Shown: positions 1 through 61,775 of the stretch, one piece after another
Layout of the letters: each line of letters begins with the position of its first letter
Numbering within the stretch: the first letter of the stretch is position 1
Assembly: GCF_036588685.1 (NCBI RefSeq)
Contig: NC_086373.1
Location: 99,696,001-99,760,000 of the forward strand
Source: Mytilus trossulus
Lineage: Eukaryota
Direction of reading: 5' to 3'
Length of the DNA stretch: 64,000 nt
The notes under the pieces: model-generated
The model's input: the letters and a program-made list of their open reading frames with translations, nothing else
What the model was told of the DNA's origin: nothing
Databases searched by the model: none
Position numbers and translations under genes: made by a program

Positions 1-560
1 TCCCATGATTGACAATTAGACTTGATAACCCCAAAACATAACAGTTGTTAATGCACCAAAAAAGGTCTTCAGCCAGTTGTTATCCCCTATTTTGACAACT
101 ACCCACTAGCTGTAAGACCTGATTTTATCGTTGACAACACAATGCCGGATCCTTTAAGAGCCATAACTACCTACCTCCAAGGAGAAGTCTTCTGTAATAA
201 TATCGGAATGCATCTCCCATGATTGACAATTAGAAAAAAACATAACAGTTGTTAATACACCAAGAACGTTCTTCAGTCAGTTGTTGTCCCCTATTTTAAC
301 TAGCCACTACCTCCATGGGGAAGCCTTGACTTCTCTTTAGTGTCCAGCTATGAGCACGGATTTGAATCGGATTGAGTATTTTGGGACATGCAAGGTCGTA
401 GCATATCAGCATTTGAACCTCTTCTTCCAAATTTGTCTCATTTAAAAGCAGAACTGCACCGGAAATGGCTACAGCTAAGACAACAGCAAATCCAACAATT
501 GACTAGATTAACGATATGCAGGATTGATCCCGTAGATAATGATTTATGATACGATTGGCG
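1..560 (+). pseudogene. Tc1/mariner (DD34E-type) transposase C-terminal relic with internal partial duplication
   Basis: Manual translation across stops and frameshifts gives LQPVVIPYFDNYPLAVRPDFIVDN...YLHGEALTSL*CPAMSTDLNRIEYF/WDMQGR...LKAELHRKWLQLRQQQIQQL. This matches the Tc1 motifs 'DNA.PH' (degenerate) and 'WPA.SPDLNPIEH.WD'. Bases 1-~95 are repeated at ~215-300. Confidence 0.85.
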
Positions 561-3714: not shown

Positions 3715-4335
3715 TATATACTTTTTTGGATGTCTACGGAGTCAAACGTGCAGGGTTCGAACCAACAACATCAAAGCTGACAAGCTAGTAATACATGTAA
3801 CTGTAGATGAACTACCTATATCAATTGGCAACCGAGGCCACCACATTTTTTGGAGTCCCGAAAATAAAAGCTTATGATAGATCTTTATAAAGCTCTTTTC
3901 AAATGGGGACCAAAGAAGTGTCAGCAAATCCCGAATAAGATTTGATATTCATGTAATTTATTATAATTCCAGCCTCGAAGTTAGAGGTGATTAGATTAAA
4001 GCATACGGGATAAACCCCTGATACCAATCTTAACATTTGAACGCAATGTTTATTGCGTTTACTGAATATTTATAACTGGACATGACTGTCGATAAAAGTC
4101 TTGAAGGAATGAAATATTGCGTTAATTTGGGACCTACGTATATATTGATATCTATTGCTGGTGAATGTGGGATGCCTTAATTACAGCAATAATCAACAAG
4201 ATGAACTGTTGGGTTTTACGGAATGATTTGCTGTACTGTTGCAAATATTCTAAACGAAAGGGCAGAATATTACAATGACTCAAAGAAGGATATCTACAAC
4301 CACGGGACAGTTTTGACAAGGCAAGCAAAATGAGA
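3715..4335 (+). pseudogene. possible decayed secreted-protein gene fragment (weak Sushi/CCP-like traces)
   Basis: An acceptor is followed by hydrophobic IYFFGCLRSQTC. The same frame continues through several stops to ECGMP...CCTVANILNERAEYYNDSKKDIYNHGTVL. The resemblance to a Sushi domain is subjective. Confidence 0.15.
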
Positions 4336-9820: not shown

Positions 9821-10858
9821 AGAAAAGAGGGACGAAAGATACCAAAGGGACAGTCAAACTCATAAATCTAAAACAAACTGACAACGCCATGGCTAAAAAT
9901 GAAAAAGACAAACAGAAAAACAATAGTACATATGACACAACATAGAAAACTAAAGAATAAACAACACGAACCCCACCAAAAACTAGGGGTGATCTCAGGT
10001 GCTCCGGAAGGGTAAGCAGATCCTGCTCCACATGCGGCACCCGTCGTGTTGCTTATGTGATTACAAATCCGGTAAATAGTCTAATTCGGTAGGTCAAATT
10101 CATGAAAGGGAAGGTGATTGTAGTTACGACGTAAGGAACAAATCCGATATCATTTGTGAAATGGTTATTCCATAACGGTCAACCAACTTTACGAAGGGAT
10201 GATTTCAACTTCACCATTTGGAACTCTTGATTTAATAACTTCCTTGTGAGCAGTAACCCTCTATCAAGAAAATCATGATAGGAAATGCAAGCACGGGAAT
10301 ATCGTATCAATTGAGAGATATATACCCCGTATGCAGGTGCTGCTGGAATGTTGCTACTTAGAAATGGAAAGTTCACAATTGGAAAGCTGAAATCATCTCT
10401 TTTGTCGTAAAGTTTTGTCTTCAACCGACCCTCATTGTCAATTTCTAGATGTAAGTCAACATATGAAGCTTACTTAACTGTATCTGTAGTATCCTTTATC
10501 TCCAATTCGATGGGATAGATGCGTTCCACATAGTCACCAAATTTTGAATTGTTTAGTGATAGAACGTCATCTATATAGCGGAAAGTAGAGTTAAAGGATA
10601 TTGCTAACTTCTTATCTTTCTTCCTAAGAAGTTCCTGCATGAAGTCAGCCTCATAATAATAAAGAAACAAGTCAGCAAGTAGAGGGGCACAGTTTGTTCC
10701 CATTGGGATGCCGACAGTCTGTTGAAAAACACGTCCTCCGAACGTAACAAATATGTTGTCAATCAAGAAATCAATCATCTTGATAATATCGGTTTCAGAG
10801 AATTTTTTGTTTGAATCAGAGTGATTCTTTACAAAGTAGGATTTATCCCTCCCTCCCT
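9821..10858 (-). mobile_element. 5'-truncated Penelope-like retroelement (RT C-half plus 3' tail), inactivated
   Basis: ORFs 10470-10778 and 10179-10424 are one frame broken by a TAA. Motifs are QTVGIPMGTNCAPLLADLFL, FRYIDDVL and KLYDKRDDFSFPIVNFP...YGVYISQLIRY. A frameshifting deletion follows LRK. No GIY-YIG is seen downstream of RT. The 3' tail recurs elsewhere (~6790-6950, 14260-14530, 31170-31478, 32930-33270, 43420-43545). Confidence 0.9.
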
Positions 10859-12611: not shown

Positions 12612-13850
12612 ATACAAAGGCGTTCAGGAAAACAATGAAGCGTATACCAATTAAGAAATAATTCATGGGGGCTTGAATATATCGTGATTTTACCACGGGT
12701 TGGCCCTTTATGCAAAACATTTTACCCCTGAGCGATAGCGAGGGGTAAATATCGGCATTAAGGGACAACCGTGGTAAAATCACGATATATTCAAGCCCCC
12801 ATGAATTATTTCGATTCTAATAGGACAAATACGGCAATTCTTTTGGATCGAAGCGCCTTAGGTGAAGGCATTATTTGCCGTTCCCATAAATAAACGCACT
12901 TTTGAATTGACGTAAAAGAACAGAGCAAACTTTATAAATGGCATGCTTAAACTATTTACAATAACGTATTTAGATAGGTTTTGATGATTTTAAATTATAA
13001 CTTTACTATTTTGTTTTATATAGATGCAAACAATGGCTTATATAGCACATTTTTGCATCGTTTGTTTACGTTTCCTTGTTGTGATGATTTTGGCTTTCAC
13101 AAGCGTGTATTTTCCCGTAAAATGCTTATATTCTGACGTTAACGTTCTATGACGTCGGTAAGCTCATTCATAAAAAAACATTTGCCGTGGGAGTACGATT
13201 GGAACAGCCCATGCAATATATTCATATTTTACCACGGGTGTGTACTCAAAGCGTTTGAAGGACGTCATGTTAGAATAATACATAGCATAGATGTTGCTCT
13301 TTTATTTGATATGTAAGATCCTCAGGAAAACAAGTAAACGTATGTCAATGGCAATATTACATAGATCTTACCCTTTAATTTGGTATATAAGGCGCTTAGG
13401 AAAACAAGGAAGTGTAAATCAAAGACAACAATACATAGATGTTTCTATTCCATTTGATATATCGGAGCTCAGGAAAACAAGGAAGAGTCAATAATAACCT
13501 TACATAGATGTTTCCCGTGAACTTGGTATGAAAGGTCCTCAGGTAAACAAGTATAGGTATAGCAATGAAAATATGCAATATGTGACACTTTAATAAAATA
13601 ATCGTGATCTATCTTACCATATAATTATGTTTATATTAAATTTGGTATGTAAGGTGCACAGGAAAACAATGAAGCGTATATCAATGTAAACATTACAAAA
13701 ATCTCTATAATTTGGTATATAAGGCGCACAAAAAAAAACAAAAAACAAGGAAGCGTACGTATATCAATTTATCAATAATAACCTTACAAAGATGTTTCAA
13801 TTTGTTTTTGTCAATAAGGCTATGAGGAAAACAAGGAAGAGTACATATTT
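12612..13850. repeat. degenerate ~75-bp tandem array (caggaaaacaaggaag...catagatgtt) interrupted by a palindromic element
   Basis: The aggaaaacaa-anchored unit occurs at ~12626, 13324, 13398, 13471, 13541, 13660 and 13825. Confidence 0.75.
12652..13276. mobile_element. non-autonomous element with long terminal palindrome (Crypton-like architecture, tentative)
   Basis: Hairpin 12655-12812 (gaaataattcatgggggcttgaatatatcgtgattttaccacgg / ccgtggtaaaatcacgatatattcaagcccccatgaattatttc). A short inverted repeat attctaa...ttagaat bounds the body. It interrupts one tandem unit. Confidence 0.7.
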
Positions 13851-13864
13851 AATTACATGACATG

Positions 13865-14530
13865 ACAGAAAAGAAGCTATCGTTGTATTTTAACTTCACA
13901 TTCTTCTATATAGATGATGTCCTCTTACTAAATGATTAAAAGCTGGTGACTGCTGAACGCATCTATCAAATATAACTTTAAATGAAAGATACAACGAATA
14001 AAGTCAAGTCTGCCTCATATATTGACCTAAATCTAGACATAAACGAAACTTTATGACAATAGAAATGATTTCAGATATCCAATTGTGAACTTTTCATTTC
14101 CATATAGCACCATTTCAGCAACAGCTGCATATTGAGTATATATATCCAATTTAAAGCAAGAGTTCCAATTGGTGAATATCCGTTTAAATTAAATTTACGG
14201 ATCATATGACCAGTTGGTTGACAATTATGAAATATCTGTTTCACAGATGAACACAGGTATATTCCAATTCTTGTAACGTCAATCACGTTCTCTTTCCATT
14301 GAATGTGATCTATCGAATAAGTATTATCTCTAGGTTTTTACTTAAATGTGTATCACGTTAGGTACTTCCGGAGCATCAGAGATGAACCTGGTTTTGGTTT
14401 GGTTCATATTGCTCTTTTTCTATGTTGTGTTTCGTGTATTGTCATTTGTTTTTTCGTCGGTTTGTTTTTTGCCATGATATTTGTCTGATTGTTTTAGAAT
14501 TATAAGTTTGAATATCCTTTTTTATCCTTT
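13865..14530 (+). mobile_element. older decayed copy of the Penelope-like element
   Basis: Reads EKKLSLYFNFTFFYIDDVLLLN...KDTTNKVKSASYIDLNLDI...KLYDNRNDFRYPIVNF with stops, followed by the same 3' tail as 9821-10130. Confidence 0.8.
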
Positions 14531-25271: not shown

Positions 25272-27044
25272 AACTAGAGGCTCTAAAGAGCCTGTGTCGC
25301 TCACCTTGGCATATGTGAATTAAACAAAGGAAGCAGATAGTTCATGACAAAATTGTGTTTAGGTGATTGTGATGTGTTTGTACATCTTCCTTTACTGAAC
25401 ATTCTTGCTGCTTACAATTATCATTATCTATAATGAACTTGTCCGTGTAGTTTCAGTGGAAAATGTTAGAAAAAATTTACAAATTTTATGAAAATTGTTG
25501 AAATTGATTATAAAGGACAATAAATTCTTAGGGGGTCAATTGACCATTTTGGTCATTTTGACTTATTTTTTAGTCTTAAATTGCTGTACATTATTGCTGA
25601 TTACAGGTTATCTCTATCTATAATAATATTCAAGATAATAACCCAAAACAGCAAAATTTCCTTAAAATTACCAACTTAGGGGCAGCAACCCAACAACGAG
25701 TTGTCCGATTCATCTAAAAATCAGGGCAGATAGATCTTGACCAGATGAACAGTTTTACATCTTGTCAGATTTGCTCTAAATGCTTTGGTTTTTGAGTTAT
25801 AAGCCAAAAACTACATTTTACCCCTATGTTCTATTTTTAGCCGTAGCGGCCATCTTGGTAAGTTTGCCCAGTCACAAAACACAATTTTAAAACTAAATAG
25901 CCTAATAATGATTCTGGCTATGTTTGGTAAAATTTGGCCCAGTAGTTTCAGAGGAGAAGATTTTTGTAAAAGTTAATTAAGATTTACGAAAAATTTATAA
26001 AAATTGACTATAAAGGGCAATAACTCCTAAAAGGGTCAACTGACCATTTTGGTCCTGTTGACTTATTTGTAAATCTTACTTTGTTGAACATTTTTGCTGT
26101 TTACATTTTATCTCTATCCATAATAATATTCAAGATAATATCCAAAAATAGCAAAAATCCTTAAAATTACCAATTCAGGGGCAGCCACCCAACAACGGGT
26201 TGTCCCATTCATCTTAAAATTTAGGGCAGATAGATCTTGACCAGATAAACAATTTTACCCCTTGTCAGATTTGCTCTAAATGCTTTGGTTTTTTAGTAAT
26301 AACCAAAAACTGCATTTAACCTCCATGTACTATTTTTAGCCGTGGCGGCCATCTTGGTTGCTTGGTCGGGTCAAAAACACAATTTTTAAAATAGATACAT
26401 CAATGATGATTGTGGCCAATTTTGGATTAATTTGGCCCAGTAGTTTCAGAGGAGAAGATTTTTGTAAAAGATCATGAAGATTTACGAAAAATGGTTACAA
26501 ATTGACTATAAAGGGCAATAACTCATAAAGGGGTCATCTGACCATTTTGGTCATGTTGACTTATTTGTAAATCTTACTTTGCTGAACATTATTGCTGTTT
26601 ACAGTTTATCTCCATCTATTATAATATTCAAGATAATAACCAAAAACAGTAAAATTTCCTTAAAATTACCAATTTCCAACAATGGGTTGTCTGATTCATC
26701 TGAAAATTTCAGGGCAGATAGATCTTGACCTGATAAACAATTTTACCCCATGTCAGATTTGCTCTAAATGCTTTGGTTTTTGGGTATTAAGCCAAAAACT
26801 GCATTTTACCCCTATGTTCTATTTTTAGCCATGGCAGCCATCTTGGTTGGTTGGCCGGGTCAAAAAACACAAATTTTAAACTAAATACATCAATGATGAT
26901 TGTGGCCCAGTTTGGTTGAATTTGGCCCAGTAGTTTCAGAGGAGAAGATTGTTGTTAAAGTTAACGACGGACGACGGACGACGGACGCCGGACGCCAAGT
27001 GATGAGAAAAGCTCACTTGGCCCTTCGGGCTAGGTGAGCTAAAA
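25272..27044 (+). mobile_element. Helentron-associated (HINE/pearl-like) element with three ~499-bp internal tandem repeats
   Basis: Starts aactagaggctctaaagagcctgtgtcgctcacc. Units begin at 25504, 26004 and 26502. A (GACG)-type microsatellite lies at ~26965-26995. The 3' hairpin agctcacttggcccttcgggctaggtgagct is followed by an A-run. Confidence 0.85.
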
Positions 27045-29319: not shown

Positions 29320-29797
29320 AGTCCTGTAATGTTGTGTTGTCATTTTAATGTTATATTTCACATGGCCATAAAAGAGGGAGGTTTGGCATGCCACAAAACC
29401 AGGTTCAACCCACCATTTTGTCTTTAAAAATGTCCTGTACCAAGTCAGGAATATGGCAATTGTTAAACTATAGTTCGTTTCCCTTGTATGTTACATTTTA
29501 ACGTTGTGTCGTTTGTTTTCTCTTATTTTTGAGTGAAAATTCACATTACTATAAGACGTCTCACTGTACTTATCTATCCCAAATTCATGTATTTGGTTTT
29601 GATGGTATATTTGTTATTCTCGTAGGATTCTGTTTAATGCTTAGTCCGTTTCTGGGTGTGTTACATTTTAATGTTGTTTCGGTGTTCTCCTCTTATATTA
29701 AATGCGTTTCTCTCAGTTTTAGTTTGTTACCCCGATTTTTTTTTTGTCCATGGATTTATGAGTAATGAACAGCTGTATACTACTGTTGCCTTTATTT
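29320..29797 (+). mobile_element. interspersed repeat carrying a twister-like motif (29365-29457)
   Basis: The body matches 55870-56120 and 52630-52780 in reverse orientation and 7750-7955 in the same orientation. Motif: gccata-aaa-gagg-GAGGT-ttggcatgcca-caa-aaccaggtt-CAA-ccc-AC-cattttg..aaaaatg-t-cctgTACCAAGTcagg-aa-tatggc. Confidence 0.8.
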
Positions 29798-43551: not shown

Positions 43552-44110
43552 ATAAAAAGAAGATGCGGTGTGATTGCCAATGATGCAACTCTTCACAAGA
43601 GACCAAATGGAACAGTAATAAAAAAAAAACTATAGGTCACATTACGGCCTTCAACAATGAGCAAAGGCCATAGTGAATAGTAAGCTTTAAAGGCATGAAA
43701 TCACAAATGTTAAACAATTCAAACGAGAATTAAAAAAAACCCGGCCTAATTTGTGAACAAACAAAAAAATGAACAAAAAAAAACCAATTAGGTAACACAG
43801 CAACAAACGACAACCACTGAATTACAGGTTAGCTCATGAATCGGGACAGGCATTTATACATACAGAATATGGCAGGGTTAAACATGTTAGCGGAATATTA
43901 ACCCTCCCCGGCTAACCGGAGACAGTGATGTAACAGAACAACATAAGAACGAACCATGAACATCTGTTGAAAAAGGCTTAACACATCAAACGGATACAAA
44001 TGTTTCTACTAAACACAGAGTGACATGGCCGGGTACTTGTACATTCCAACAACAAATAGACACTAAGTACAGATCTGAGAGTACTCCCATTTAATGACAA
44101 CTAGTTCAAC
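43552..44110 (-). mobile_element. interspersed repeat carrying a twister-like motif (43827-43918)
   Basis: Minus strand: ggttagc-cggg-GAGGG-ttaatattccgct-aacatgtt-TAA-ccct-GC-c...g-cctgTCCCGATTcatg-a-gctaacc. Related copies at 45750-46190, 20345-20520 and 17800-17900. Confidence 0.7.
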
Positions 44111-47100
44111 TGACAACTAAAACAATTTTTTAATTGAGTTTGAATGTACCTCTAGTATATTCGCCTCTCTTTTTCAGGTGTTGTTTGAAAAGACACATAT
44201 GCATGAAAAGATGACTACCGATATAATATATACGAATAAAAGCTTTAAAAGTTTTTTTTATACGAAATCTACTGCTAGTATTGTTTCAATAAGTTGTTGT
44301 AGTCTCCGGTATTAGGCATTGAGCGAATATGATTATTGACTATTGACAAATTGATGAATATATAAAATATTGTTATTGAGGAAAAACAGCCTAGGATTAC
44401 TGTTTGAATACAATGGATATTTGGTAAAGAGTCTTATATCAAAGGGATCAAATGAGCAGCTAACAGAAGTATGACATGATGTTGATTGATCCTTCATTAT
44501 AGTTAGTTATAACGTTTGACCTTATGAACTAATATTCCGTTACTGGACATTGATATTTTAATAGTAATAGATCTTACAGTCTAGACTAAACGCATTTATG
44601 AACAGGATGATATTCACCCGACTACTAATGGCGGTTAATAGCTTCCTCTTGGTATTCTACAGGGAACCAGTTTATGCTACAAGTTGAAATTTACACAAAC
44701 ATCATTAAATGTGAGAAAAGGATTGCAACCATTTATTGTAAATCGAATTATGTAAACCTGTTTTCCCAAGGGTTAAATTTGTTTGCGAAAAGTAAATTAC
44801 TGCAATATATAACTCCTTCTTGCATGCTGTGTCACTTGGCTAAGTTCGACCAACGGCTATGCATCTAATATAGAGTTAGCATATTGTTCACTGGTTCAGA
44901 GGATACTACAATACTTGAATTATTGGTCATACAAAACATTGCAAACATTTTTCAACGGTTTCCGACGGTGAAATTGCAATAGTAATGCGGATATTTCCTC
45001 TTTATATTAAATATTCATAATACGAAGTGGAATTGGTAAAAACAATTGAAAATATAACCAACCCTTAAAACTACTTCAAACTCTTCTAGCTGTGAAGCTT
45101 GGGATTTGACTGTAGTTACTATCATTAATAAATGGTATGGTATTGTTCTGTAGGGTGATTGATTCACAGCTTTTTGTATCTACATAATACTATTGATGAC
45201 AACGGTTTAATGGATTTAATTCCAAGTTTAGATCGAAATACAACCATTTGAAAATCTGAAAAACAATCACAATAAAACATCTAAAACAGTTAATTGTCTC
45301 TTGTTTTAAGCGTACTGTTTATGTAACACAAGTCGGTGGCAATTCGTTTGACAAAATTCTATCGTTTAATGAAATAATGAATATGACAAAAGCAATTTGT
45401 GATATTTATGTAACATGTGATTTGTTTTTCAGATACAATATAACGTCAATAAGTCAAGTACTTTAAACAGCATTATTTGAAAAAGAAATAGACGGATATT
45501 TTCCGTGATGTGTTTTTTACGGAAACTCTTAAATACCAATTCATTTTGTACTTTTAACTTTTGTGGTAGTCCTTCTAATGTTGCAGTGTAGGAAGAAATT
45601 ACTAAATGTTGCATAATCAACTTCTATATTTTTCTTCAAATTCTGCAACCTCAATTGTTTATACGCAGATCATGTTGTATTACTGGTTTTGGAATTATAA
45701 CTTATTTTTGTATACTTCACATACTGAGTAATTTCTATAGATATAAAAAAAAATGTGGTACGGTTGCAAATGAGACAACTCGCCATCATAGTCAAAATTT
45801 GTAAAATTTAACATTATAGGTCAAAGTACGACCTTCAACACGGAGCCTTGGCTAACACCGAACAACAAGCTATAAAGCCAAAAAGTTGACTAGTGTATAA
45901 TCATTCAAACAGGAAAACAATTGTCTAATCTATATAAAAAACGAGAAACAATTATGAACCACATCTACAAACTACAACCACTGAACATGAGATTCCTGAC
46001 TTAGGACAGGTGCATACAAATGCAGTAGGTTAAACTGTTTTAATAGGCACCAAACTTCACACAACCAAAACAATAGTGTAACATCACAACATAGAAAGAC
46101 ACTATAAAATATCAATTGAAATGGCTAAACTCGATCAAAGGACATATTAGCAAAACAAGTGAACATACATTGAACGAATAATGTTCATTCGGTATGAATG
46201 AGTCATACCTATTTTATCATTATAAAACCTTGATTCAGAGTGTTGTTGTGTTATATAACAACATTGCTAGATCTTGATATAGTGTCAATAACTCAAGGCG
46301 TTTGATTGTATGAACTATGTCAACGCTTATTTAACATATCAAGCATATTTTATATCAGATGAGTAAGAAATTAGCTACTGTTGTATGACTGAAGTCAACA
46401 TATATACAGACTGTACAGGCAGAATAAAGATGTAGTAGTGAAATTAGACTCTATTGCAGCAATTGTTGTAGGAATATGAACGGTTAATCGTTATTGAATA
46501 TCTGTAACAGATGAAAACGCTTATGTTTCTATTGTCGTATCCAAAATCTCAACTTTAATCAGCGAAAATTTTACTAACCATGACTAAGCGGTTGCCACAT
46601 GTTAAGCAGGATTCGAAACTATTCCAAAGCGCAAGACATCACACAGGTTACATGGTCCAAGGATAATCATTTGCATGCCTCTTAACCAGTAGGCTACTAC
46701 GACAAATTATTGCTGGGCATAAACATTATACATATTGCTGACAATTAGTATGCCATCATTTACCGATTTGTTCCGGAATAAAGAAAGATTTAAATTGATG
46801 TGGTGCCACGGTCATAAAGTAATCACTAAATGAAGGATTGCATGTTCTTCCATAATCATCTATCAAAATAAAACGGAAATTGAAGTCGGAACCATATTTA
46901 TTATCTATATATGAATATGAATCCAGCCTTATACTAAAAAGTAAAATAACAAACATACAGAACTCCAAGGAAAGTCCTCATCAAATGACAAAAACACAAA
47001 GCTCCCGCACTCAAGGTAAACACGCTACCATCAAGGCGTCAAGGTTATTAGAAAACCTGGTTTTAGAAAATTCTTACATAAATACCTTTTTATAAAAGTT

Positions 47101-47698
47101 GAATCTTTTTTGTGTATTTATTGAACAATGAAAGATACTTTAAAAATTTAGTTTTAAACGAAAACTTCAAATCATATGAATAATTTTAAATGCCATCCCA
47201 TAAATAATTCGCAAACATATGTCAATTTCTCAGATGTCAGAAGAAGATGAAATATATATTGTACCACCTGGCAAAAAGTTCTCTCATTTTTACAATTTGA
47301 AGTATACTGTTATATCAAAGATCAAGAATATAGTTTTAAGCTTTGATTGAACAAATTGGAAAGTCGAACAAAAATCATGATAGGAATCAACAGACATGAA
47401 TTAGTTGTTTTACTTGTAAATTGGGCAATAGAAATTCTCCAGTTTTTAGAATATATGAGAAACAAAATCTTGATCTGATTCTATTCCCATTACCTAGTAT
47501 TAAAGTATGCGATGATTTTTCAGTCGACTTAAAATCCACTGTTATTAATCGTCATCTATATGAAATTCTGGCTATATATATATTCAATAAATTCAAGCAC
47601 TTTGGCATTAAAACAAAATTGCAGAATTGATATTTCCAGAAATGCATCACTTTTTAAATTTTGCCATAAATAATCAGTGCATTGTCTCTGGTACTGGG

Positions 47699-48235
47699 AC
47701 TACAATATGCCACTTAACAATTTATTGAAATGACTAAACAATATGCCACTAAACAATTTATTGAAATGACTAAACGATATGCCACTAAACAATTTATTGA
47801 AATGACTAAACAATATGCCACTAAACAATTTATTGAAATGACAAAACAATATGCCACTAAACAATTTATTGAAATGACTTGAACAATATGCCACTAAACA
47901 ATTTATTGAAATGACTAAACAATCTGCCACTAAACAATTTATTGAAATGACTAAAAAATATGCCACTAAACAATTTATTAAAATGTCTAAACAATATGCC
48001 AATAAACAATTTATTGAAATGACTAAACAATATGCCACTAAACAATTTATTGAAATGACTAAACAATATGCCACTAAACAATTTATTGAAATGTCTAAAC
48101 AATATGCCACTAAACAATTTATTGAAATGACTTTAACAATATGCCACTAAACAATTTATTGAAATGACTAAACAATATGCCACTAAACAATTTATTGAAA
48201 TGACTTTAACAATATGGCCCTAAACAATTTATTAA
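47699..48235. repeat. 36-bp minisatellite, ~15 copies
   Basis: Unit acaatatgccactaaacaatttattgaaatgactaa is built from two actaaacaat-headed subunits. It explains the repetitive ORFs at 47700-48150. Confidence 0.95.
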
Positions 48236-51200
48236 ACTGCGTCGATTCTTCATCCAATATATTTTAAACAGTTGTCATCTCTTATATTGAATATAAAATC
48301 AATGGAATACACACTGTAATGTATTGAAAAAACGAGTAAAACCGATTCTTGTAATTAATGTTAATGCTAGAAGGGCCATAGGACCAACATAATTTAGATG
48401 TGGATTTGATAGCGCTCATTTCCCAACTGGTTTAGAATTAATTTCAGTAAAATAATGATACAATGCACATTCTTTTACCAAAGAACTATTACTTTTTATT
48501 ACCAGATTTATTTTTATGGTCCCAAACGTCACATAACTCTATATAAGACTATAGAAAAACGCCAATGAAAGTGTTCAAGGAAGATACATTTTTACACATA
48601 ATTACAGGATATTGGGAAAACTTAAAGATAAACTCGTCAAGGGAACACCTTAGTATTACAGGATGTTATCAAAACGTAAAGCTCAATTTGTCAAGGGAAC
48701 ACCTAAGCATTGTTTGTATACATGAAAACATAACATTATGCCGTTGTAAGACAAATATATTGCTAAAATGATGTATTTTAAAATGCAGATGCAATTAAAT
48801 CTTAAGGTTACATACTGTTTTCGTCAGTCTTTTCATTGGTTGTCTTTAGAGATTTACAAGTACATCATAAAATTTAGTTGCATTGCATAACTAATTGACA
48901 ACCTAGTCTATGATCATTAACAATGAACAAGAAAAACTAATAAAACGTATAAAACTTAGCAAAATGTCTAACTTTCTAAAACATGACTGTGCATCTTAAT
49001 CAATATATACCGAAGCTGCATACAATTGATTCTCTTTATCTCAAAGCTTTTTTCTCTAAAAATACCTTTTAAAAAAGTCATAGTTAAATGTCTAACTAAA
49101 TTGATAGCTTCACATTATCATAACCTCTGATAACTCAAACTTCCTGTTAATTCATTTTTTAAACCAGTTTAAACTACTTTGAGCTAGCGAGAGTAGACTA
49201 TGTATTACACAACGGAATAGAAAAAATATCGTAACATAGATACAAGGAGATTTGGTATGACAACACTCAATCCAAATGACATGTTTCATGTCAGATGTCT
49301 TATCAGCCCTGTGTTAATACAACCCCTCTAGATAGTCATCGGTACTTCTTGGAGTGACAGTACTAAAGCCTGGGTCTGAAAATTCATCCAATATGAAAAC
49401 TGTCATGTGATATTCTGATAATATTGCATCGATAGCCATGCAATAGCCCTATATTACATATATATACTTGTATTCTTTATTGTGGCGGCAGGCGCAATTG
49501 ACAAACGACATTTTCTCTCCATGAAAGTTCATAACAATATCTGTCTTCTTCTTCAAGGTTGAAATAATTATCTATTTTCAGTTTCTTCAAGGTCAAAAGT
49601 ATTGGTCTAATTTGTATTTTGTTAGACAGATTCGTCAATATTGTTTATGAATTTTATAAAGAATATAGTCTGAACTTTCTTGAAGCATGTAGGTTATCAT
49701 AGACGAAATAACTATCATAGATCAAGTTAAATAATTTCAATGAGTCTGGCTCTATTATTTCTATAACCGATAGAAAACAACACAAAATATGCTCACTAGA
49801 TGTTGTCAGATAAAGGAGGAGATAATAGTAAACATACACCAAACACATTTAACCTTTGGCAAGTATATGGACCTTAAACAAAACTGTTAAATGACGGATT
49901 TTCAACCAAGGTTAGCACGACCTGCTTGGCATGTGAAATCCGTTAAAATACCAAGAAAATAAGTAAGATCAGAAAATGTCAAATCGGTTAAACAAAACAT
50001 CATGAAAATATAAGAAAAGTGTCTATCTAAATAGGGTAGATCCAATATAGATTATTTTTGAATATATGCATTTACAGAAATTAAAAAAAATCTCTGATAG
50101 CTAATGGTAGAACCAGGCTTACAACTTTTCATTTATTATTAATCCCTTGTTTTGGTTCTTACCAATTGGGAATAACAATCAGTCGATAACGGAGAAACAA
50201 TACGAAAAAAGACAATATAAACAATAGCATAAACTCGATAACATTTCAATTATATCAACACCTTTGATCTGAAAATATGGCATTTTAACGGTCTATGAAT
50301 GCATATTTAAAAACATTTAATCAAATATTTAAAACAAAACAAAAATCTAAAACTCATATATGGGAGACTACATTGTTGAAAACCTCTGGATGATTTTATC
50401 TGTAAGAATTATAATACTAAATTAATGTCAAAGCTCTGTGTTGAAGGCTAATTGTTAAAGTTTTATACATTTTGACTTAGATGGAGAGTTGTCTCATTGG
50501 CGCGAACACATACGACATTTTCTTATTTATATAATCAGTACACTCACACAAAGTATGGAAACTTGATTTGAAAGTTAATATTTTTTGTTATGCTTATTCA
50601 ATACGTTGATACAATTTGAATGTTAACACATGTGTCATTGAAAAACATATCGTTTGCATCGTTCATTATATTGTGAACAATTCAATGTCTTAAATCTTTT
50701 AAAAAACACAAAATTATATATTATTTGATTTTGAGACTCGGAATTCTACGTTAGACAATAAATTGATTTATTTAGACAACATCTTTACAACACATGATGT
50801 AATTTCATTATTATTACCTATAATTATCTAGGACTAGTAAAACTCTATTCTAGAAAAGACTATCATGAGAAATGTTCTATCATACTTTAGGTCAATATCT
50901 AGTCCAGATCTTTTAGAATCTTGTGGCAGATGTTCAAAGAAGATAATGTTTTCACGTTAGATTGAGTAGTATATAAAATTATGACGATAGTTTGGTTCAA
51001 AGTGAATATTTCTTTTATTATCATAGCTCTTTATAGTGCTAAACATAAATTTCCCATTGTTCCTTTTAACTTGTTTTCTTCAACTTCTCTCTCATCTTTA
51101 TGAACAAAATTATATGATAAGAGACCAAAAGATTCAATCCAACAAAGGCAAAGCAACTCGATCAATCTAACTGAATTATATAGGAATTAAAGATTATGAC

Positions 51201-51827: not shown

Positions 51828-52230
51828 AAAAAGTAAAATCACAAAAAATACTGAACTCCGAGGAAAAATTCAAAACGGAAAGTTTCTTATCAAATGGCAA
51901 AATCAAAAGATAAAACACATCAAACGAATGGAAAACAACTGTCATATTCCTAACTTGTTACAGGTATTTTCTTATGTAGAAAATAGTGGATTGAACCTTG
52001 TTTTATAGCGCTTAAACATTCTACTTGTATGACAGTCGAATCAAATTCCATTCTATTGACAATGACACGTGAACAAACAGATATAATAGGTAAAATTGTC
52101 AAAATAGGGGTACAGCAGTCATCAGTTTGTCCAAGGATTTGTATAGTTAACTATACAAATCCTTGGTTTGTCACAATCTCAATCAGAACACCAAAAAAAA
52201 AAACATTTAACAAAGAAGCACATACAAGTA
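51828..52230 (-). mobile_element. interspersed repeat (aaaagtaaaatcacaaaaatactgaactccgagg family) with twister-like motif 51937-52037
   Basis: Matches 61305-61560. Shorter fragments at 5320-5430, 8368-8475, 46935-47000 and 58045-58200. Confidence 0.8.
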
Positions 52231-55200: not shown

Positions 55201-55544
55201 TATACCGTAACAAATTTGTAATAAACAATGTTCCTGTTCATTTCATTGAGGATTACTGTATCAAAAAGGCTGTGAAGAACGTTGATTACATAATAAAGGA
55301 ATGAGTTGGTGTTTAACACTACTTTCAGCATTCCAGACTATATCGTTTTTTATTGATAGATGTTACTGGAGTGACCGGAGAGAACAATCGACCATCGACA
55401 ATCTATTGAATAAGCCTGACTAGTAGGCCTTAAACCAACACTTGGAATCAAGATATTTAGAATTATTTCATCAATTTCAATATTGACAATACGTGATAAT
55501 TGAATTATAGTTATGTTACTACTAAAGAATATGTTTTAAACAAA

Positions 55545-56910
55545 ATAACAAAACGTTTGGAATCATCAAACACAAAAGTGCATTTAACATTATAGATTCA
55601 GCAAACTTAAAAGAGCATAAAACGTTTGGGATTATCAAACACATAAATGTATTTAACATTATAGGTTCAGCAAACTCAAAAGTGCATAAAACGTTTGGGA
55701 TTATCAAACACAAAAGTGCATAAAACGTTTGGGATTATCAAACACAAAAGTGCATAAAACATTATTGGGTCGGTAAACTCAGAAGAGCCTTTTTTTTTTT
55801 TTTTTTTTTTATTTGGTCGGGTTGTTGTCTCTTTGACACATTCCCCATTTCCATTCTCAATTTTATTAAATAAAAGCAACAGTAGTATACCGCTGTTCAA
55901 ACTCATAATTCAATGGACAAAAAAAGAATCGAGGTAACAAAATAAAACCGAGCATTAAATATAAGAGGAGAACAACGACACAACACTAAAATGTAACACA
56001 CACAGAAACGAACCAAGCATCAGACGAAATCCTACGAGAATAACAAATATAAAATCAAAACCAAATACATGAATTTGGGATAGAGAAGTACCGTGACACG
56101 TCTTATCGCAATGTGAATTAAAACGTTTGGGATAATCAAACACAAAAGTGCATTAAACACACACAGAAACGGACCAAGCATCAGACAAAATCACACGAGA
56201 ATAACAAATACAACATCAAAACCAAATACATGAATTTGGAATAAACAAGTACCGTGACACGTCTTATCGCAATGTAAATTAAAACGTTTGGGATCATCAA
56301 ACACATAAGTGCATAAAACATTACAAGGCCAGCAAACTCAAAAGGACATAAAACGTTTGGAATCATCAAACACAAAAGTGCATAAAACGTTTGGGATCAT
56401 CAAACACATAAGTGCATAAGACATTATAGGATCAACAAACTCAAAAGGACATAAAACGTTTGGGATCATTAAACACAAAAGTGCATAAAACACAAAAGAA
56501 CATGAAACGTTATAAGTTAAACAAACTCAAAAGAACATAAAAAGTTTGGGATCATCAAACACAAAAGTGCATAAAACGTTTGGGATCATCAAACACATAA
56601 GTGCATAAGACATTATAGGATCAACAAACTCAAAAGGACATAAAACGTTTGGGATCATTAAAAACAAAAATGCATAAAACACAAAAAAACATGAAACGTT
56701 ATAAGATAAACAAACTCAAAAGAACATAAAAAGTTTGGGATCATCAAACACAAAAGGGCATAAAACATTATAGGATCAGCAAACTCAAAAGAAAATAACA
56801 CATTTGGTATCATCAAACACATAAGTGCATAAAACATTACAGGGCCAGCAAACTCAAAAGAACATAAAGTTTGGGAACATTAAACACAAAAAAATAAACT
56901 TTTGGATCAT
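55545..56910. repeat. composite ~34-bp minisatellite array with embedded TE fragments
   Basis: Alternating units aaaacgtttgggatcatcaaacacaaaagtgcat and aaaacattataggatcagcaaactcaaaag, interrupted at 55790-56280. Confidence 0.9.
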
Positions 56911-59439
56911 CAACCTCGAAACAAATTAATAAAATTGAGAATAGAAATGGGGAATGTGTCAAAGATACAACAACCCGACAAAATAAAAAAACAACAACAG
57001 AAGGTCACCAACAGGTCTTCAATGTAGCGAGAAATTTCCGCACCCGGAGACGTCCTTCAGCTGGCTATTAAAATCAAGAAACCCAAAAGTACATACATGT
57101 ACAAACTTTGAATTATCAAACCCACAAGGATTTCAACAAAGCAGGAAACAACGTTAATTTTGGTCATTGGATTTTTACGTTCTTTGAGTATAAGTTCAAA
57201 AATTGGAAATAGGAATGAAACTTCATAAAGAAAAACTACAAAATCTAGTACTGTGTATTTTCCAAGTTTTAAAAGCTAACAGCTTTAACAGCCGTTTTAA
57301 GATATATCAAGACAAACAAAAAAACATTTTATTGGAGAGATAGCCATACAGAATTTACAATAGAGTTAATAGATAGAATTTCATAAAGTCATTGAAACCT
57401 ACAGAGATAAAGTAAATTTTTCTTATAAGGACATACTATCATAAATCTGACAGACGGTTTTGGAGCATATATCCTATAAAATTGAGAATGAGGAATATGT
57501 CAAAGAGACACCAACCCAACCATAGAACAGACAACAGCAGAAGGTCACCAACAGGTCTTTATTGTATCGAGAAATTCCCACACTCGGAGGCGTCCTTCAC
57601 CTATGCATCATTTAAACTATAAACATTAGAATTTCAAAGAACAAAGTAACATTTGGAGGTACCAACTTGGCAATCAGTAGCTTTTTTTCGAAAGACAGGA
57701 AAGCGAGTTCAAGATAAACACTAACATCTACATCAACATCGTACAAAGAAACTGAATAAATCATCTCCGGATAAATAGCAGTTAACATTTAAAAAACTGA
57801 TTTAGTCACCGAACATTGTTGGTGGGTCTTTGCCTAAAAAAGAATAGTGCGATAATTTGGATTTGTTTCAATCAAACTGTTCGTCTGTAAAACGCACATA
57901 TATGTTAAATACATGTTTGCAGATTCAGAGGTAGATGCAATATTTTATTATAGTCTCAATACCCGTAATACAGAGTATATACACAATATATTACAGACAT
58001 CATACAAATATAAAATATAAGCACATTCTTTTAATGTTTGGAAAAAAGTAAAATAACTAAAAGACCGAATTCCGTGGAAAACTTCAAATGGAAGGTCTCT
58101 AAGCAAATGGCATAACGAAAATTATCAAACACATCAGACGAATTGATAATATCGTCATAATCCTGACATGTATCATTTGATATTCTAGCAAGCATATTTT
58201 CCCTGTGTAATTTGCTATTAAAAATCGACAAACGGAATACAGATATCATAAACATTTGCCTAAATTTGACCACCATTTTAAAGATATATTATAGAAGTTT
58301 AACGGAATTATCTATAGAAATCTAAAACATGTGGGGATTAGCACAATGGATGTATTTAAAATGGTTAAAAAGCAACTATGGAAATACGTCAATAAGTAAT
58401 TTAATAATTTAAAGAAATACTAAAATGATATTCATTATTGAGATGTTCTGCAATGAAGAATTAAGTACAGCTAATTCTTGGCACTGCACGGTATCGTGTT
58501 TTACCTGTTCTATTTGTGACGATGTTTTATAAAACCTGCTATTAAGTACAACAACCGATTACTAGACTCCACGAGTCAAACAAGGTCAGTGACCAACAGG
58601 AATATGACAGGTATTTTTCACTTGGTTGGTTGATAACCGTGTTATGTTGTCGTTTTTTGTAGACTTAGAATAGAGAAAGAGACAACAACCCGATCAAAGA
58701 TAGGCCACAAAAGGGTCTCCAATGCTTAAATACATTCTGCACCCGAAGTCTTCGGCTTGTCCCTTAACAACAATGCTTACAAGTTCAGCAAAAAAGACAC
58801 CACATTACAATAAAAACCACACACAAAGACCAACATAGGATAAAGGTTCCACAAGTACTATAGACTCAAAATGTGGCGGTGTAAAACATTATGTGTGAGC
58901 TCAATCACCTCTCACACTTGTTAAATAAACACACACACACAGCAAAACGCACATCCATGTAGAGCAGAGTTTGATAGAAGTCCGAGTCCGATGTTAGAAT
59001 AGGTAACAGAAGGAATTAAGCAAAATGACAATGATAAATATTAATTTACAAAAGGCTTCTAGTATTTACAAACATATGCCAGTTCCAGAAATCAATTGAA
59101 CTGATTGAGAGATTTTGTCTTTATCATATGAAAATCAAGCAAATCCCTCCCATCATAAATCATACGAGAAAACACTTCCCCAATCAGGCCAACAACTTCT
59201 TTTAGAATAAATGTGTTTATTTTCGATGCAAAGACCCTATAATATTAATTCCAAAAGATACCATCTTTAATGACTTGAAAACAGTATCGTAACCATATCC
59301 CTTGTGTATGGTTCTGTTTAAATGTTTGGTTAGCTTTTTCAGGTGAATGACGACATTTTATTTTGGTGATTTGTATAGAATATTGCCATTAAAGCCGAGA
59401 TGTGAAATCTCTGCCATAAAATATGCCTACACGTTGATT

Positions 59440-61270
59440 TTTTTATAATTACCGATCTTTTTACACGATTCATTGCTATTGTTTGACTACTCTTTATATC
59501 TAAATCATTGCTGTTAATATACTCATCTTTATAATTGATTCATTGCTGTTCCATTTTACACTGTGTTACCGAATCATTTAAGTTTAAAGACAACTCCTTT
59601 TAATTGAATAACTGTTGTTTTGACTACTCTCTATTACTGATTATTTGCTGTTGACAGAAAAATCTTTATAACCTATTCATTGGTGTTTATAGACCACTAT
59701 TTATAAACGATTCATTGTTATTGATAGACAAATCTCTGTTACCGACTCTTTTATGTTGATAGACAATTCCGATTATGAACTGCTGCCAATAGACAACTCT
59801 TTGCTACCTATTCATTGCTGTTGACTATTCTGTATAACTGAGTAACTGCTGTTATTAGACTATTCTTTATATTCTATTCATTTTCGATGATAGACAATTC
59901 TGTTACCGATTATAAACTGATGTCACTAGACAACTCTTTGCTATCTATTCAATGATGTTGATAGACTATTCTTTATAACCGAGTAGTTACTGTTAATAGA
60001 CTATTCTTTATATTCTATTAATTTTTTGATGATAGACAATTCTGTTACCGATTATAAACTGCTGTCCACTCTTTGTTACCTTTTCATTCTTATCGTTTGA
60101 CCACTCTTTATAACCGATTAATTGATGTTGTAAGACAATTCTTTATAATATATTCATTGGTGTTGATAGACCACGATTGATAAACGATTCATTGCTGTTA
60201 ATATACTATCCTTTATTCCTATTCTATGCATTGTTGTTCATAGACAGTTCTGTAAGACTACTATCATATAATCAATTCATTACTGTTGTAAGATTTCTCT
60301 TTGTGTAACGAATTCATTGCCGAAGTTAGACTACTCTTTATATCTTATTCTTTGCTGCTGAAAAACAATTCTTTATATTCCATTCATTGGTGTTGTTAGA
60401 CAACTATTTATTACCGAGTCATTGCGGTTAATAAGCTATATTTGAAGTCTTCATAATCTGATCATTGGTGTCAGTATGATACCGGCTATGTTCTTCTCAG
60501 ACATTTTATAATGGTATGTCTAGAGCTGGCATGTCAGGAATTGCTAGTAGTCCTTTATTTATGTACTTGTCATTGTAATATGACTAAGTATTTGACATCG
60601 GACTCGGACTTCTTTTGAAATTACTTTGCTGTGATTATTGCTTTTTTTCCCCCTTTAATTTACATTGGTTAGAGGTATAGTGGAGGTTGAAACATCACAA
60701 AACATGTTTAACCCCGCCGCATTTTTTGCAAGATGCCTCTGGCCTTTGTAAGTCTTGTATGTTTTTTAAATTTAGTTCATTTATATGTTTTTGAGGTTAG
60801 TGCGACGTTCATTTTCCCTGAACTAGTACACATTTTTATTTTGAGTGAGGTGCTTCTCCGGGTGCGGGAATATCTCGCTGCGTTGGAGGCCCATCAATAA
60901 CCATCGTTTTTCATCTACTTTTTGATTGGGTTGTTTGTCTTTTTCATATATTAAACATTGCCATTCTAAAATGTAATTCTTTGTTACCTATTCATTGCTG
61001 TTGATAGACAATTCGCTGTTATCGACTCGTTGCTTTTGATAAACTACTTTTTAACCGATTTATTGCTGTAGATAGACACTCTTTTTTTTTACCGATGCAT
61101 TGTTATTAATATACTATTCTATATAACTGACATTGCTATTGATATCATTTGACAATTCTTTGTTACCGAATCATTTTAGTTTATATACAATTCTTTGTAA
61201 TTGATTCGCTGTTGTTGAAAGATAACTCTTTATGACTCTTTTGTATAACTGATACAATTTTTTTAGACAA
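59440..61270. repeat. highly degenerate ~35-40-bp minisatellite split by an interspersed-repeat insertion (60440-60975)
   Basis: Recurrent gatagacaattct..ttaccgattcattgctgtt on both sides of the insertion. Confidence 0.8.
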
Positions 61271-61304: not shown

Positions 61305-61775
61305 AAAAAGTAAAAACACAAAAATACTAAACTCAAAGGAAAATTCAAAAAGGAAAATCAAAAATCAAAAGGTAAAATCAAAAGTCAAAACACATAAAAC
61401 GAATGAATAACAACTGTCATATTCCTGACTTGGTACAGGCATTTTCTAATGTAGAAAATGGTGGATTGAACCTGGTTTTATAGCTAGCTAAACCTCTCAC
61501 TTTTATGACAGTCGCATCATATTCCATTACATTGTCAACGATGAATGAACAAAACAATGTGATACGACTGTAATACAAGTGAGAGGTTTACCGGTATAAA
61601 ACCAAGTTCAATCCATCATTTTCTACATTTAAAAATGCTTGTACCATTTCAGGAATGTGGCAGTTGTTGTCCATTCGTTTGATGTGTTTTATCGTTTGAT
61701 TTTGTCATTTGATTGGGAAATTTCCATTTAGTTTAGAATTTTCCTCGGAGATCAGTATTTTTGTGATTTTACTTT
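61305..61775. mobile_element. two copies of the same family in inverted, head-to-head arrangement
   Basis: 61305-61515 is the diverged reverse complement of 61565-61775. Confidence 0.85.
61411..61513 (-). ncRNA. best-preserved twister-like (P5-type permuted) structured RNA motif
   Basis: gactgtcata-aaa-gtga-GAGGT-ttagctagcta-taa-aaccaggtt-CAA-tcc-AC-cattttcta(cat)tagaaaatg-cctgTACCAAGTcagg-aa-tatgacagtt. The P5, P3 and P4 helices and both pseudoknot pairings can be drawn. Confidence 0.55.

Follow-up and report, generated by a model that had tools for sequence, protein, structure and literature searches.

The window, the whole stretch of 64,000 nucleotides of Mytilus trossulus DNA that was analysed (contig NC_086373.1, positions 99,696,001 to 99,760,000), has a GC content of 27-36% and is full of dispersed and tandem repeats. 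On its minus strand, positions 43827-43917 hold a decayed type-P5 twister-like motif of a repeat family that we call family A. The motif was recognised by our covariance model R1 (46.7 bits, E 1e-10) and examined pair by pair. The 5' arm of P5 (43911-43917) pairs with 43827-43833 at 7 of 7 positions. The segment 43902-43910 carries the P2 partner strand, the catalytic G 43906 and A 43905 and the T1 partner GGG (43904-43902), as given by the pair check and by the Twister-P5 alignment of an intact relative. The slot of P1 (43881-43901) contains, by its sequence and by the contigs of sequencing runs, a decayed palindrome 1 and an intact palindrome 2 (43888-43881). The predicted cleavage site between U 43880 and A 43879, the P2 strand and the T2 dinucleotide GC lie within 43872-43880 and were placed by sequence and by homology to the Rfam model. 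P4/L4 (43835-43850) bears three substitutions at 43842, 43840 and 43836, which were seen in the pair check and in the run contigs. The minus-strand motif is followed by the family A 3' tail of about 270 nt (43554-43826), which matches the metagenome loci L003 and L007 at 77% and has thousands of related contigs. The labels P1-P5, T1, T2 and L4 and the catalytic roles follow the usual nomenclature; they were placed by the Rfam alignments of the intact relative L002 and of the phage locus L021.

A reading made from the sequence alone had located copies near 43827, 60670 and 45995, and all three are present there. For the first copy it had proposed a canonical core. The UAA (43880-43878), the GC and the T1 pseudoknot (TCCC with GAGGG, 3 of 3 pairs) hold and the catalytic G-A is in place, whereas the 4-nt P2 forms only 3 of its 4 pairs. 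P4 had been called mutated, which is correct (3 of 4 pairs), but the larger damage sits in L4 at 43842 and 43840. Through the P4/L4 substitutions, an invariant A, one P4 pair and the C-G pair of T2 are lost. The break in T2, where 1 of 2 pairs is left, had been overlooked.

Contigs of four runs were aligned to 43560-44080 at 80% likeness, which gave 12,406, 17,005, 24,722 and 2,121 family A contigs. The window letters at 43874 and 43894-43899 are minority states among these contigs. In run X1, the positions 43894 and 43897-43899 read otherwise in more than 90% of the depth, and the family majority restores an 8-nt palindrome 1 at 43899-43892. At 43840 and 43842, which few contigs span, the window letters are in the minority as well. 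One X1 contig is identical to 43862-43972. An intact core with a shorter P5 arm was read in loose contig ends at 43828 (287, 422, 435 and 57 contigs) and at 43856. The 7-bp P5 that had been quoted for the 43827 copy is therefore not that of the family majority, which in the contigs of all four runs has a shorter arm without the 4-nt insertion of this copy, as judged from the few contigs that cross this place. The longer arm may be a trait of a subfamily.

An Rfam scan of the 43827 copy alone returned no twister. No match to a reverse transcriptase (RT) was found beside the family A copy of the window or in L003, L007 and L014, all of which are short or truncated pieces. Since no RT was found beside family A copies, the assignment of this family to the Naiad elements described below rests on the shared motif and the layout of the tail, by which family A likely sits at the 3' end of Naiad elements. 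Upstream of the family A twister in L007, at about 3900-3935 (plus strand), a short hairpin stands between a box C-like and a box D-like word; the same hairpin is found decayed in the window at about 43955-43990 (minus strand). We presume that it resembles a kink-turn motif.

The copy near 60670 belongs to a second family, family B, and covers 60667-60744 on the plus strand (R1 48.8 bits), with the predicted site between 60709 and 60710 by sequence. The deletion of P4 that had been claimed for it is borne out, P4/L4 being gone entirely, and UAA-CCCC-GC is there. Its P5 has 10 bp and P3 is present, and one G of T1' and palindrome 1 are damaged. It is embedded in the 3' UTR and tail (pseudo-LTR) of a predicted selenoprotein Naiad at 60492-60981 (plus strand), which is 70-72% alike to the metagenome loci L002, L006, L010 and L013. 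On the minus strand, an inverted family B fragment at 58847-59440 was identified by tblastn, blastn and R1. It contains an RT C-terminus at 59223-59408 (tblastn 57% over 65 aa, E 2e-11), a partly deleted SECIS region and a very decayed twister at 58847-58925 (R1 18.3 bits). Family B in the window thus is an inverted pair at 58847-60981, whose minus-strand member is the RT end and whose plus-strand member comprises the 3' UTR and tail. The plus-strand piece is surrounded by a 35-bp array. Minisatellites of 35 bp, 36 bp and 17/34 bp and a tandem repeat of about 500 bp were noted at 59420-61233, 47632-48277, 55530-56896 and 25376-26964, and a perfect 44-nt inverted repeat with a 70-nt spacer at 12655-12812.

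The copy near 45995 (45984-46072, minus strand, R1 35.0 bits) is intermediate. Its tail is family-A-like and scores 137 against the family A locus L003, compared with a background of 15-28. P4/L4 is retained with one change, as had been stated, but the register is not the canonical one: the 3-nt P2 strand and the AC at T2 are those of a divergent variant. The partners of P2 and T1 are broken. Four copies of the divergent variant itself were found. Two of them pass the full descriptor introduced below: 61413-61512 (minus strand, R1 34.7 bits), which has a 12-bp P5, and 29362-29460 (plus strand, R1 32.5 bits), which has another palindrome 1. The former resembles, by eye, the 3' end of the published Naiad_Mgal and gave a weak Rfam match to twister-P1 (18.5 bits, E 0.1). 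The copies at 51938-52036 (minus strand, R1 33.2 bits) and 61567-61664 (plus strand, R1 19.3 bits) are decayed, and the latter is inverted relative to 61413-61512 (inverted repeats I2/I3).

The model R1 was built from 8 canonical metagenome copies only. After the named copies, the variant copies and the very decayed copy at 58847, the next-best match in the window had 10.6 bits, which is background. The sequence-only reading had regarded the canonical copies as a bridge from the divergent variant to the twister, and this bridge is real, because the canonical-only model retrieves variant copies at 32-35 bits. The window has 5 matches to the P4 core where 0.12 would be expected, and none of 100 shuffled windows reached 5. 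The 18-mer on the P1 side alone is weak, with 2 matches in the window and 2 of 100 shuffles reaching that number. A strict descriptor consisting of the twister invariants and the pairings was passed by seven metagenome loci and by the two variant copies of the window, and in none of 100 shuffled windows. The three named copies all fail this full descriptor. We conclude that they are fossils and very likely inactive.

For younger copies, we used contaminants in public metagenomes and the run contigs. The search pattern for the metagenomes fixed the stretch around UAA, including the A-A, and the first four letters of P4; the other 12 of 16 letters of P4/L4 and all pseudoknot partners were free to vary. 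The scan yielded 14 loci, 11 of which are repeats like those of the window; L004, L005 and L009 are GC-rich, have no P4 and were dropped as unrelated. The exact 16-nt P4/L4 core is found in 9 of the 11 window-like loci, while one locus has a G.U wobble and one is decayed. Young copies hence keep P4 and the complementarity of the pseudoknots, which is the outcome on which the earlier proposal had been staked. The A-A at the cleavage site (fixed by the pattern for the loci), the G-A in front of T1' and the AAG in L4 are kept in the seven loci and the two variant copies that pass the descriptor. The P5 stem has 10-12 bp in L002, L006, L010, L013 and the window copy at 61413, and 4-6 bp in the other four.

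A scoring with the twister covariance models had also been proposed. A 181-nt stretch of L002 matched the Rfam Twister-P5 model with E 0.0037, but its 23.4 bits are below the gathering score of 37.6, and the alignment skipped the P1 part (21 nt). Rfam scans at full length found SECIS elements and no twister in the 11 loci and no twister in the window. As a control, viral sequences were analysed. Ten viral loci share a 17-nt P4/L4 core pattern, and five of them (L016, L020, L021, L024 and L025, near 1501-1517) look by eye like phage type-P1 twisters, with an identical 17-nt P4/L4 core. The motif of L021 scored 54.5 bits (E 5e-12) and also missed its gathering score of 67.2; at gathering level, Rfam reported tRNAs only in the ten viral loci. 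The first pattern had no match in the viral scan, and a viral scan with the Naiad protein gave 8 pattern matches, none of which was confirmed. Three loci found with a two-gap pattern were rejected since they have no P4 partner and are unlike the window and the Naiad protein.

The sole locus of the GTDB scan, L015, was a chance match without P4, and its genome has no match to the model. Among 401 genomes of the same order, one match was obtained, L029, a piece of the variant family on a contig in a bacterial bin, where a variant twister, whose P5 has 11 bp, comes after an RT end. In L003, L011, L013 and L029, fragments of animal Naiads adjoin sequence of bacterial appearance or lie in a bacterial bin (G223:C552), which is host contamination in public assemblies. 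The copies in L003 (767, minus strand) and L008 (about 1556, plus strand) start at palindrome 2, some 9-11 nt before the predicted cut. This clustering of starts may be a selection effect, because the search pattern required that stretch.

We then asked whether the stems covary. With the 8 canonical copies alone covariation was not significant, as 86 of 500 shuffles reached the paired fraction and 118 of 500 the score. With 15 copies including the variants, 88% of the cells are paired, and both partners change in 18 of 27 pairs; none of 500 shuffles reached this, and slid controls paired at 34-40%. The pair count of this alignment leans towards structure, because it was made to fit the nested stems and its copies are related to one another. 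Pair counts from a further fitted alignment, A3, which contains 4 chance hits, were set aside. The paired fraction was 81.5% for P2, 96.4% for P4, 85.7% for T1 and 96.4% for T2, and P5 has changes on both sides in all 10 columns of the fitted alignment. The model does not include the two pseudoknots. In T1, one pair is G-C in 7 copies and U-A in 4; in T2, one pair is G.U in 9 copies and A-U in 5, the T2 changes being one-sided only. RNAalifold favoured a stem of the off state described below over the twister register of P2.

These data bear on the possibility that the twister likeness arose by chance in AT-rich mobile repeats. Rfam finds no twister in the window or in the 43827 copy, and a looser descriptor was passed in 8 of 100 shuffled windows. 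Against this stand the strict descriptor with its empty shuffles, a core that recurs letter for letter in a phage twister, the compensatory changes across families and the Twister-P5 match of L002. A chance origin is already largely refuted and is very improbable.

The sequence-only reading had missed the element that carries the fold, and also the palindromes that replace the absent P1. In L002, L006 and L010, an open reading frame of more than 1000 codons precedes the twister fold, and in L013 and L029 an RT end lies upstream. The family B protein has a GIY-YIG region at its N-terminus and an RT at its C-terminus, together with the CxC and DKA motifs. In the available text of Craig et al. 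(2021, PMC8557442), GIY-YIG, CxC, DKA and RT are the diagnostic features of Naiads, a clade of Penelope-like retrotransposons. The protein has 65 homologues, many of which are annotated with PF01541 or PF00078. A Pfam search with the family B protein itself gave no significant match, and a PDB sequence search with the Naiad protein gave 0 matches. Four in-frame UGA codons stand opposite a cysteine that is conserved in 54 of 54, 51 of 57, 56 of 57 and 61 of 63 ungapped homologues, respectively. A SECIS-like hairpin is found behind the stop codon in 5 loci, for example in L006 at 469-533 (minus strand), with 25.9-32.3 bits to SECIS_1, short of the gathering score of 35. Family B is accordingly a predicted selenoprotein Naiad of the mussel type.

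The predicted cut lies 356-360 nt past the stop codon and about 283 nt before the end of the tail. The ends of the L006 and L010 contigs overlap by 77 and 93 nt, respectively, and the tail is directly followed by the 5' UTR. Since these contigs close on themselves and the tail adjoins the 5' UTR, head-to-tail units of about 4.0 kb exist.

The P1 helix is absent from the fold. A P1 stem cannot be formed by the 21-24 nt that separate T1' from the cleavage site, and on their own these nucleotides barely fold (0 to -1.8 kcal/mol). Two palindromes occupy this slot instead. Of 14 copies, 9 have a perfect palindrome 1 of 8 nt or more, in 7 different sequences; it has 6 nt in 2 further copies and is missing in 3. 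Among random 14-mers of the window, 4.3% contain a palindrome of at least 8 nt. Palindrome 2 was fixed by the search pattern in the loci; in the variant copies and in seven published consensus sequences given in the supplement to PMC8557442 it differs and stays self-complementary. The complementarity runs through the centre of the palindromes, which is needless for a hairpin loop and needed for a duplex of two copies. Because the palindromes vary in sequence and yet keep their self-complementarity, a cleavage gated by dimerisation, as in the Penelope hammerheads, is suggested.

Folding energies were calculated for monomers and duplexes. In 5 of 5 copies tested, the active-like nested fold was 4.8-7.8 kcal/mol less stable than the best fold of the monomer. 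In this best fold, T1' and the bases that follow it pair with the AA of the cleavage site in families A and B. Homoduplexes of the palindromes had -15 to -19 and -8 to -9 kcal/mol. These energies speak for plausibility only, because both pseudoknots and the kissing geometry were left out of the calculation, and the pseudoknots alone could activate a monomer.

Taken together, our results suggest that the named stretches are decayed 3' ends of repeats with a P1-less, circularly permuted (type-P5) twister fold. Intact family B copies end Naiad elements, as family A copies likely do too, and the fold is predicted to be self-cleaving, likely as a dimer paired by the palindromes. We give this reading a probability of about 0.6. 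The RNA would be cleaved between the U and the AA by the usual acid-base chemistry of the twister G and A. A lone copy may adopt an off state in which the cleavage site is buried, and two copies in a tandem read-through transcript may pair through their palindromes and so fold the active core; these two steps are put forward with more reserve than the chemistry. The cut would release an RNA of unit length that could be ligated into a circle and then reverse-transcribed. In such a circle the single copy would stay uncut and would be copied into DNA with its cleavage site whole. A dimer gate would explain why genomic copies have uncut cleavage sites. Several features of this proposal have precedents in the accessible text of earlier reports. 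P1 is dispensable in twisters and a G.U in the short pseudoknot is tolerated (PMC11662667), cleavage takes place between N and A with any base in front of the scissile A (PMC11662667, PMC8501958), and the Penelope hammerheads with palindromic loops were proposed to act as dimers (PMC4209133).

The same dispensability of P1 in natural twisters (PMC11662667), together with the P1-less variants described for Schistosoma RTE elements in the accessible part of PMC8501958, lends weight to an ordinary monomeric P1-less twister that cleaves alone. The palindromes would then serve the pairing of RNAs for a dimeric RT complex or act as an endonuclease signal at the DNA level. The off state is also just 5-8 kcal/mol more stable before the pseudoknots are counted. 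However, the genomic copies are uncut and flanked on both sides, which is harder to account for with an efficient monomer without re-ligation, and the centres of the palindromes stay self-complementary where a hairpin loop has no need of it. We consider a solitary ribozyme of this kind rather unlikely.

A twister-derived fold might also have lost its catalysis and persist as a protein-binding or reverse-transcription signal in the Naiad RNA. The Rfam scores below threshold and the consensus fold in the off state fit such a signal. So does the Poseidon element, for which insertion in vitro did not need the hammerhead, cleavage occurred only with protein and RNA-seq showed no ends at the site, as far as the accessible text of PMC11167929 goes. 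On the other hand, the catalytic G-A and the A-A of the cleavage site are kept in 9 of 9 sequences that pass the descriptor and in 7 of 7 published consensus sequences with the fold, while the stems change freely. A purely non-catalytic role is improbable on these grounds, and we retain the self-cleaving, palindrome-paired twister as the preferred reading.

The main text of Craig et al. (2021, PMC8557442) describes Naiads as lacking canonical hammerheads, and the word twister is absent from it. We compared by eye 22 of the 54 3' ends in its supplement. The same type-P5 fold was seen in 7 of the 22: Mgal, Bpla, Mphi, Scon, Mmer, Movir-1 and one Clytia consensus, which precedes Amil and is presumably Chem-4. 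In these seven consensus sequences from mussels, clams and cnidarians, P2, P4, P5, T1 and T2 differ and keep their pairing. T2 is CC with GG in the clam sequences, a change on both sides, and the cnidarians have A-U as the middle pair of T1. Another conserved motif that bears palindromes was seen in 8 of the 22 ends (CGi, Sglo, Olur, Tgra, Pmar, Skow-2, Pfla-1 and Pfla-2), where it occupies the place of the twister in Naiads of oyster, ark shell, pearl oyster and hemichordates. Neither motif was seen in the remaining 7 of the 22 (Amil, Aacu, Anas, Mcor, Sdum, Smim and Dst-1).

The window also has this second motif. An RT fragment of another Naiad-like family, found by sequence searches at 10179-10856 (minus strand), has a tail without a twister and with a different structured motif at about 9940-10050 (minus strand), which contains two palindromes; weaker copies lie near 31355 and 33111. 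The motif at about 9940-10050 had no meaningful match in Rfam and is a candidate for an undescribed ribozyme. A second and more decayed RT fragment was noted at 13862-14296 (plus strand), inverted relative to that at 10179-10856 (10104-10620, minus strand). Extended to the clade, it is possible, with odds somewhat short of even, that in many Naiads from cnidarians to bivalves a permuted twister without P1 is present and active only as a dimer joined by two palindromic duplexes, and that the second motif of others may be an undescribed class of ribozyme. As part of this wider proposal, the Naiad twister would be the first natural dimer-gated twister, convergent with the dimeric Penelope hammerheads.

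In the available text of PMC8557442, the lack of hammerheads in Naiads, which are very abundant, served as an argument that the ribozymes of Penelope-like elements may be mere passengers. That Naiads of cnidarians and bivalves have a different ribozyme class at the same position, with the same design of a missing helix plus palindromes, speaks for selection on self-cleavage. The fold offers small constructs and implies that a large set of animal twisters has been missed by the Rfam models, and family B adds a retrotransposon of the mussel type that encodes a putative selenoprotein.

It is already known that twisters exist and can be permuted at P5, that RTE elements carry twisters and that Penelope-like elements carry hammerheads. 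What is new here is the predicted P1-less type-P5 twister fold in the 3' repeats of Naiads, which in the window is marked by dead copies. In the accessible text of the literature searched, including PMC7761336, PMC13725137, PMC6765202 and a retrozyme preprint of 2026, no link of twisters to Naiads or other Penelope-like elements was found, although the bivalve candidates of CHiTA (PMC11662667) may include some. No dimeric twister was found by title, in a search with incomplete coverage of subscription papers.

Compared with the type-P5 twister of Rfam (RF02684, clan CL00120), the Naiad fold has the same opening in P5 and the same order P2'-GA-T1'-...-NAA-P2-T2-P3-P4/L4. The L4 sequence, both pseudoknots and the positions of the catalytic G and A are also the same. 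In contrast to RF02684, it has no P1 and carries two palindromes there, its score is below gathering, and families A and B have a G.U pair in T2. Family B agrees with the Naiad clade, as the accessible text of PMC8557442 describes it, in its length of about 4 kb, in the GIY-YIG, CxC, DKA and RT modules and in the head-to-tail and inverted arrangements. Its selenocysteine codons are placed as in the clam and spider Naiads, with a SECIS past the stop. In that text only Naiads of clams and spiders are given as selenoproteins, and none of the four from mussels is listed among them; judged by its sequence, family B is one.

The nearest parallels come from two other groups of retrotransposons, each taken from the available portion of the source. 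The hammerheads in the pseudo-LTRs of Penelope elements (Cervera and de la Pena 2014, PMC4209133) are likewise ribozymes of a terminal repeat in which a helix is missing and a palindrome provides for pairing in tandem. They belong to another ribozyme class, and their palindromic loop has 2-4 nt compared with the two palindromes of 8-12 nt found here. The T-variant twisters of the Schistosoma RTE element Perere-3 (Liu et al. 2021, PMC8501958) are also borne by a retrotransposon, have a relaxed or absent P1 and accept any base in front of the scissile A. They are of type P1 and lie at the 5' end of their element, whose insertions start at the cut, whereas the fold of the Naiads is of type P5, lies in the 3' repeat, is present whole in the DNA and belongs to another class of element.
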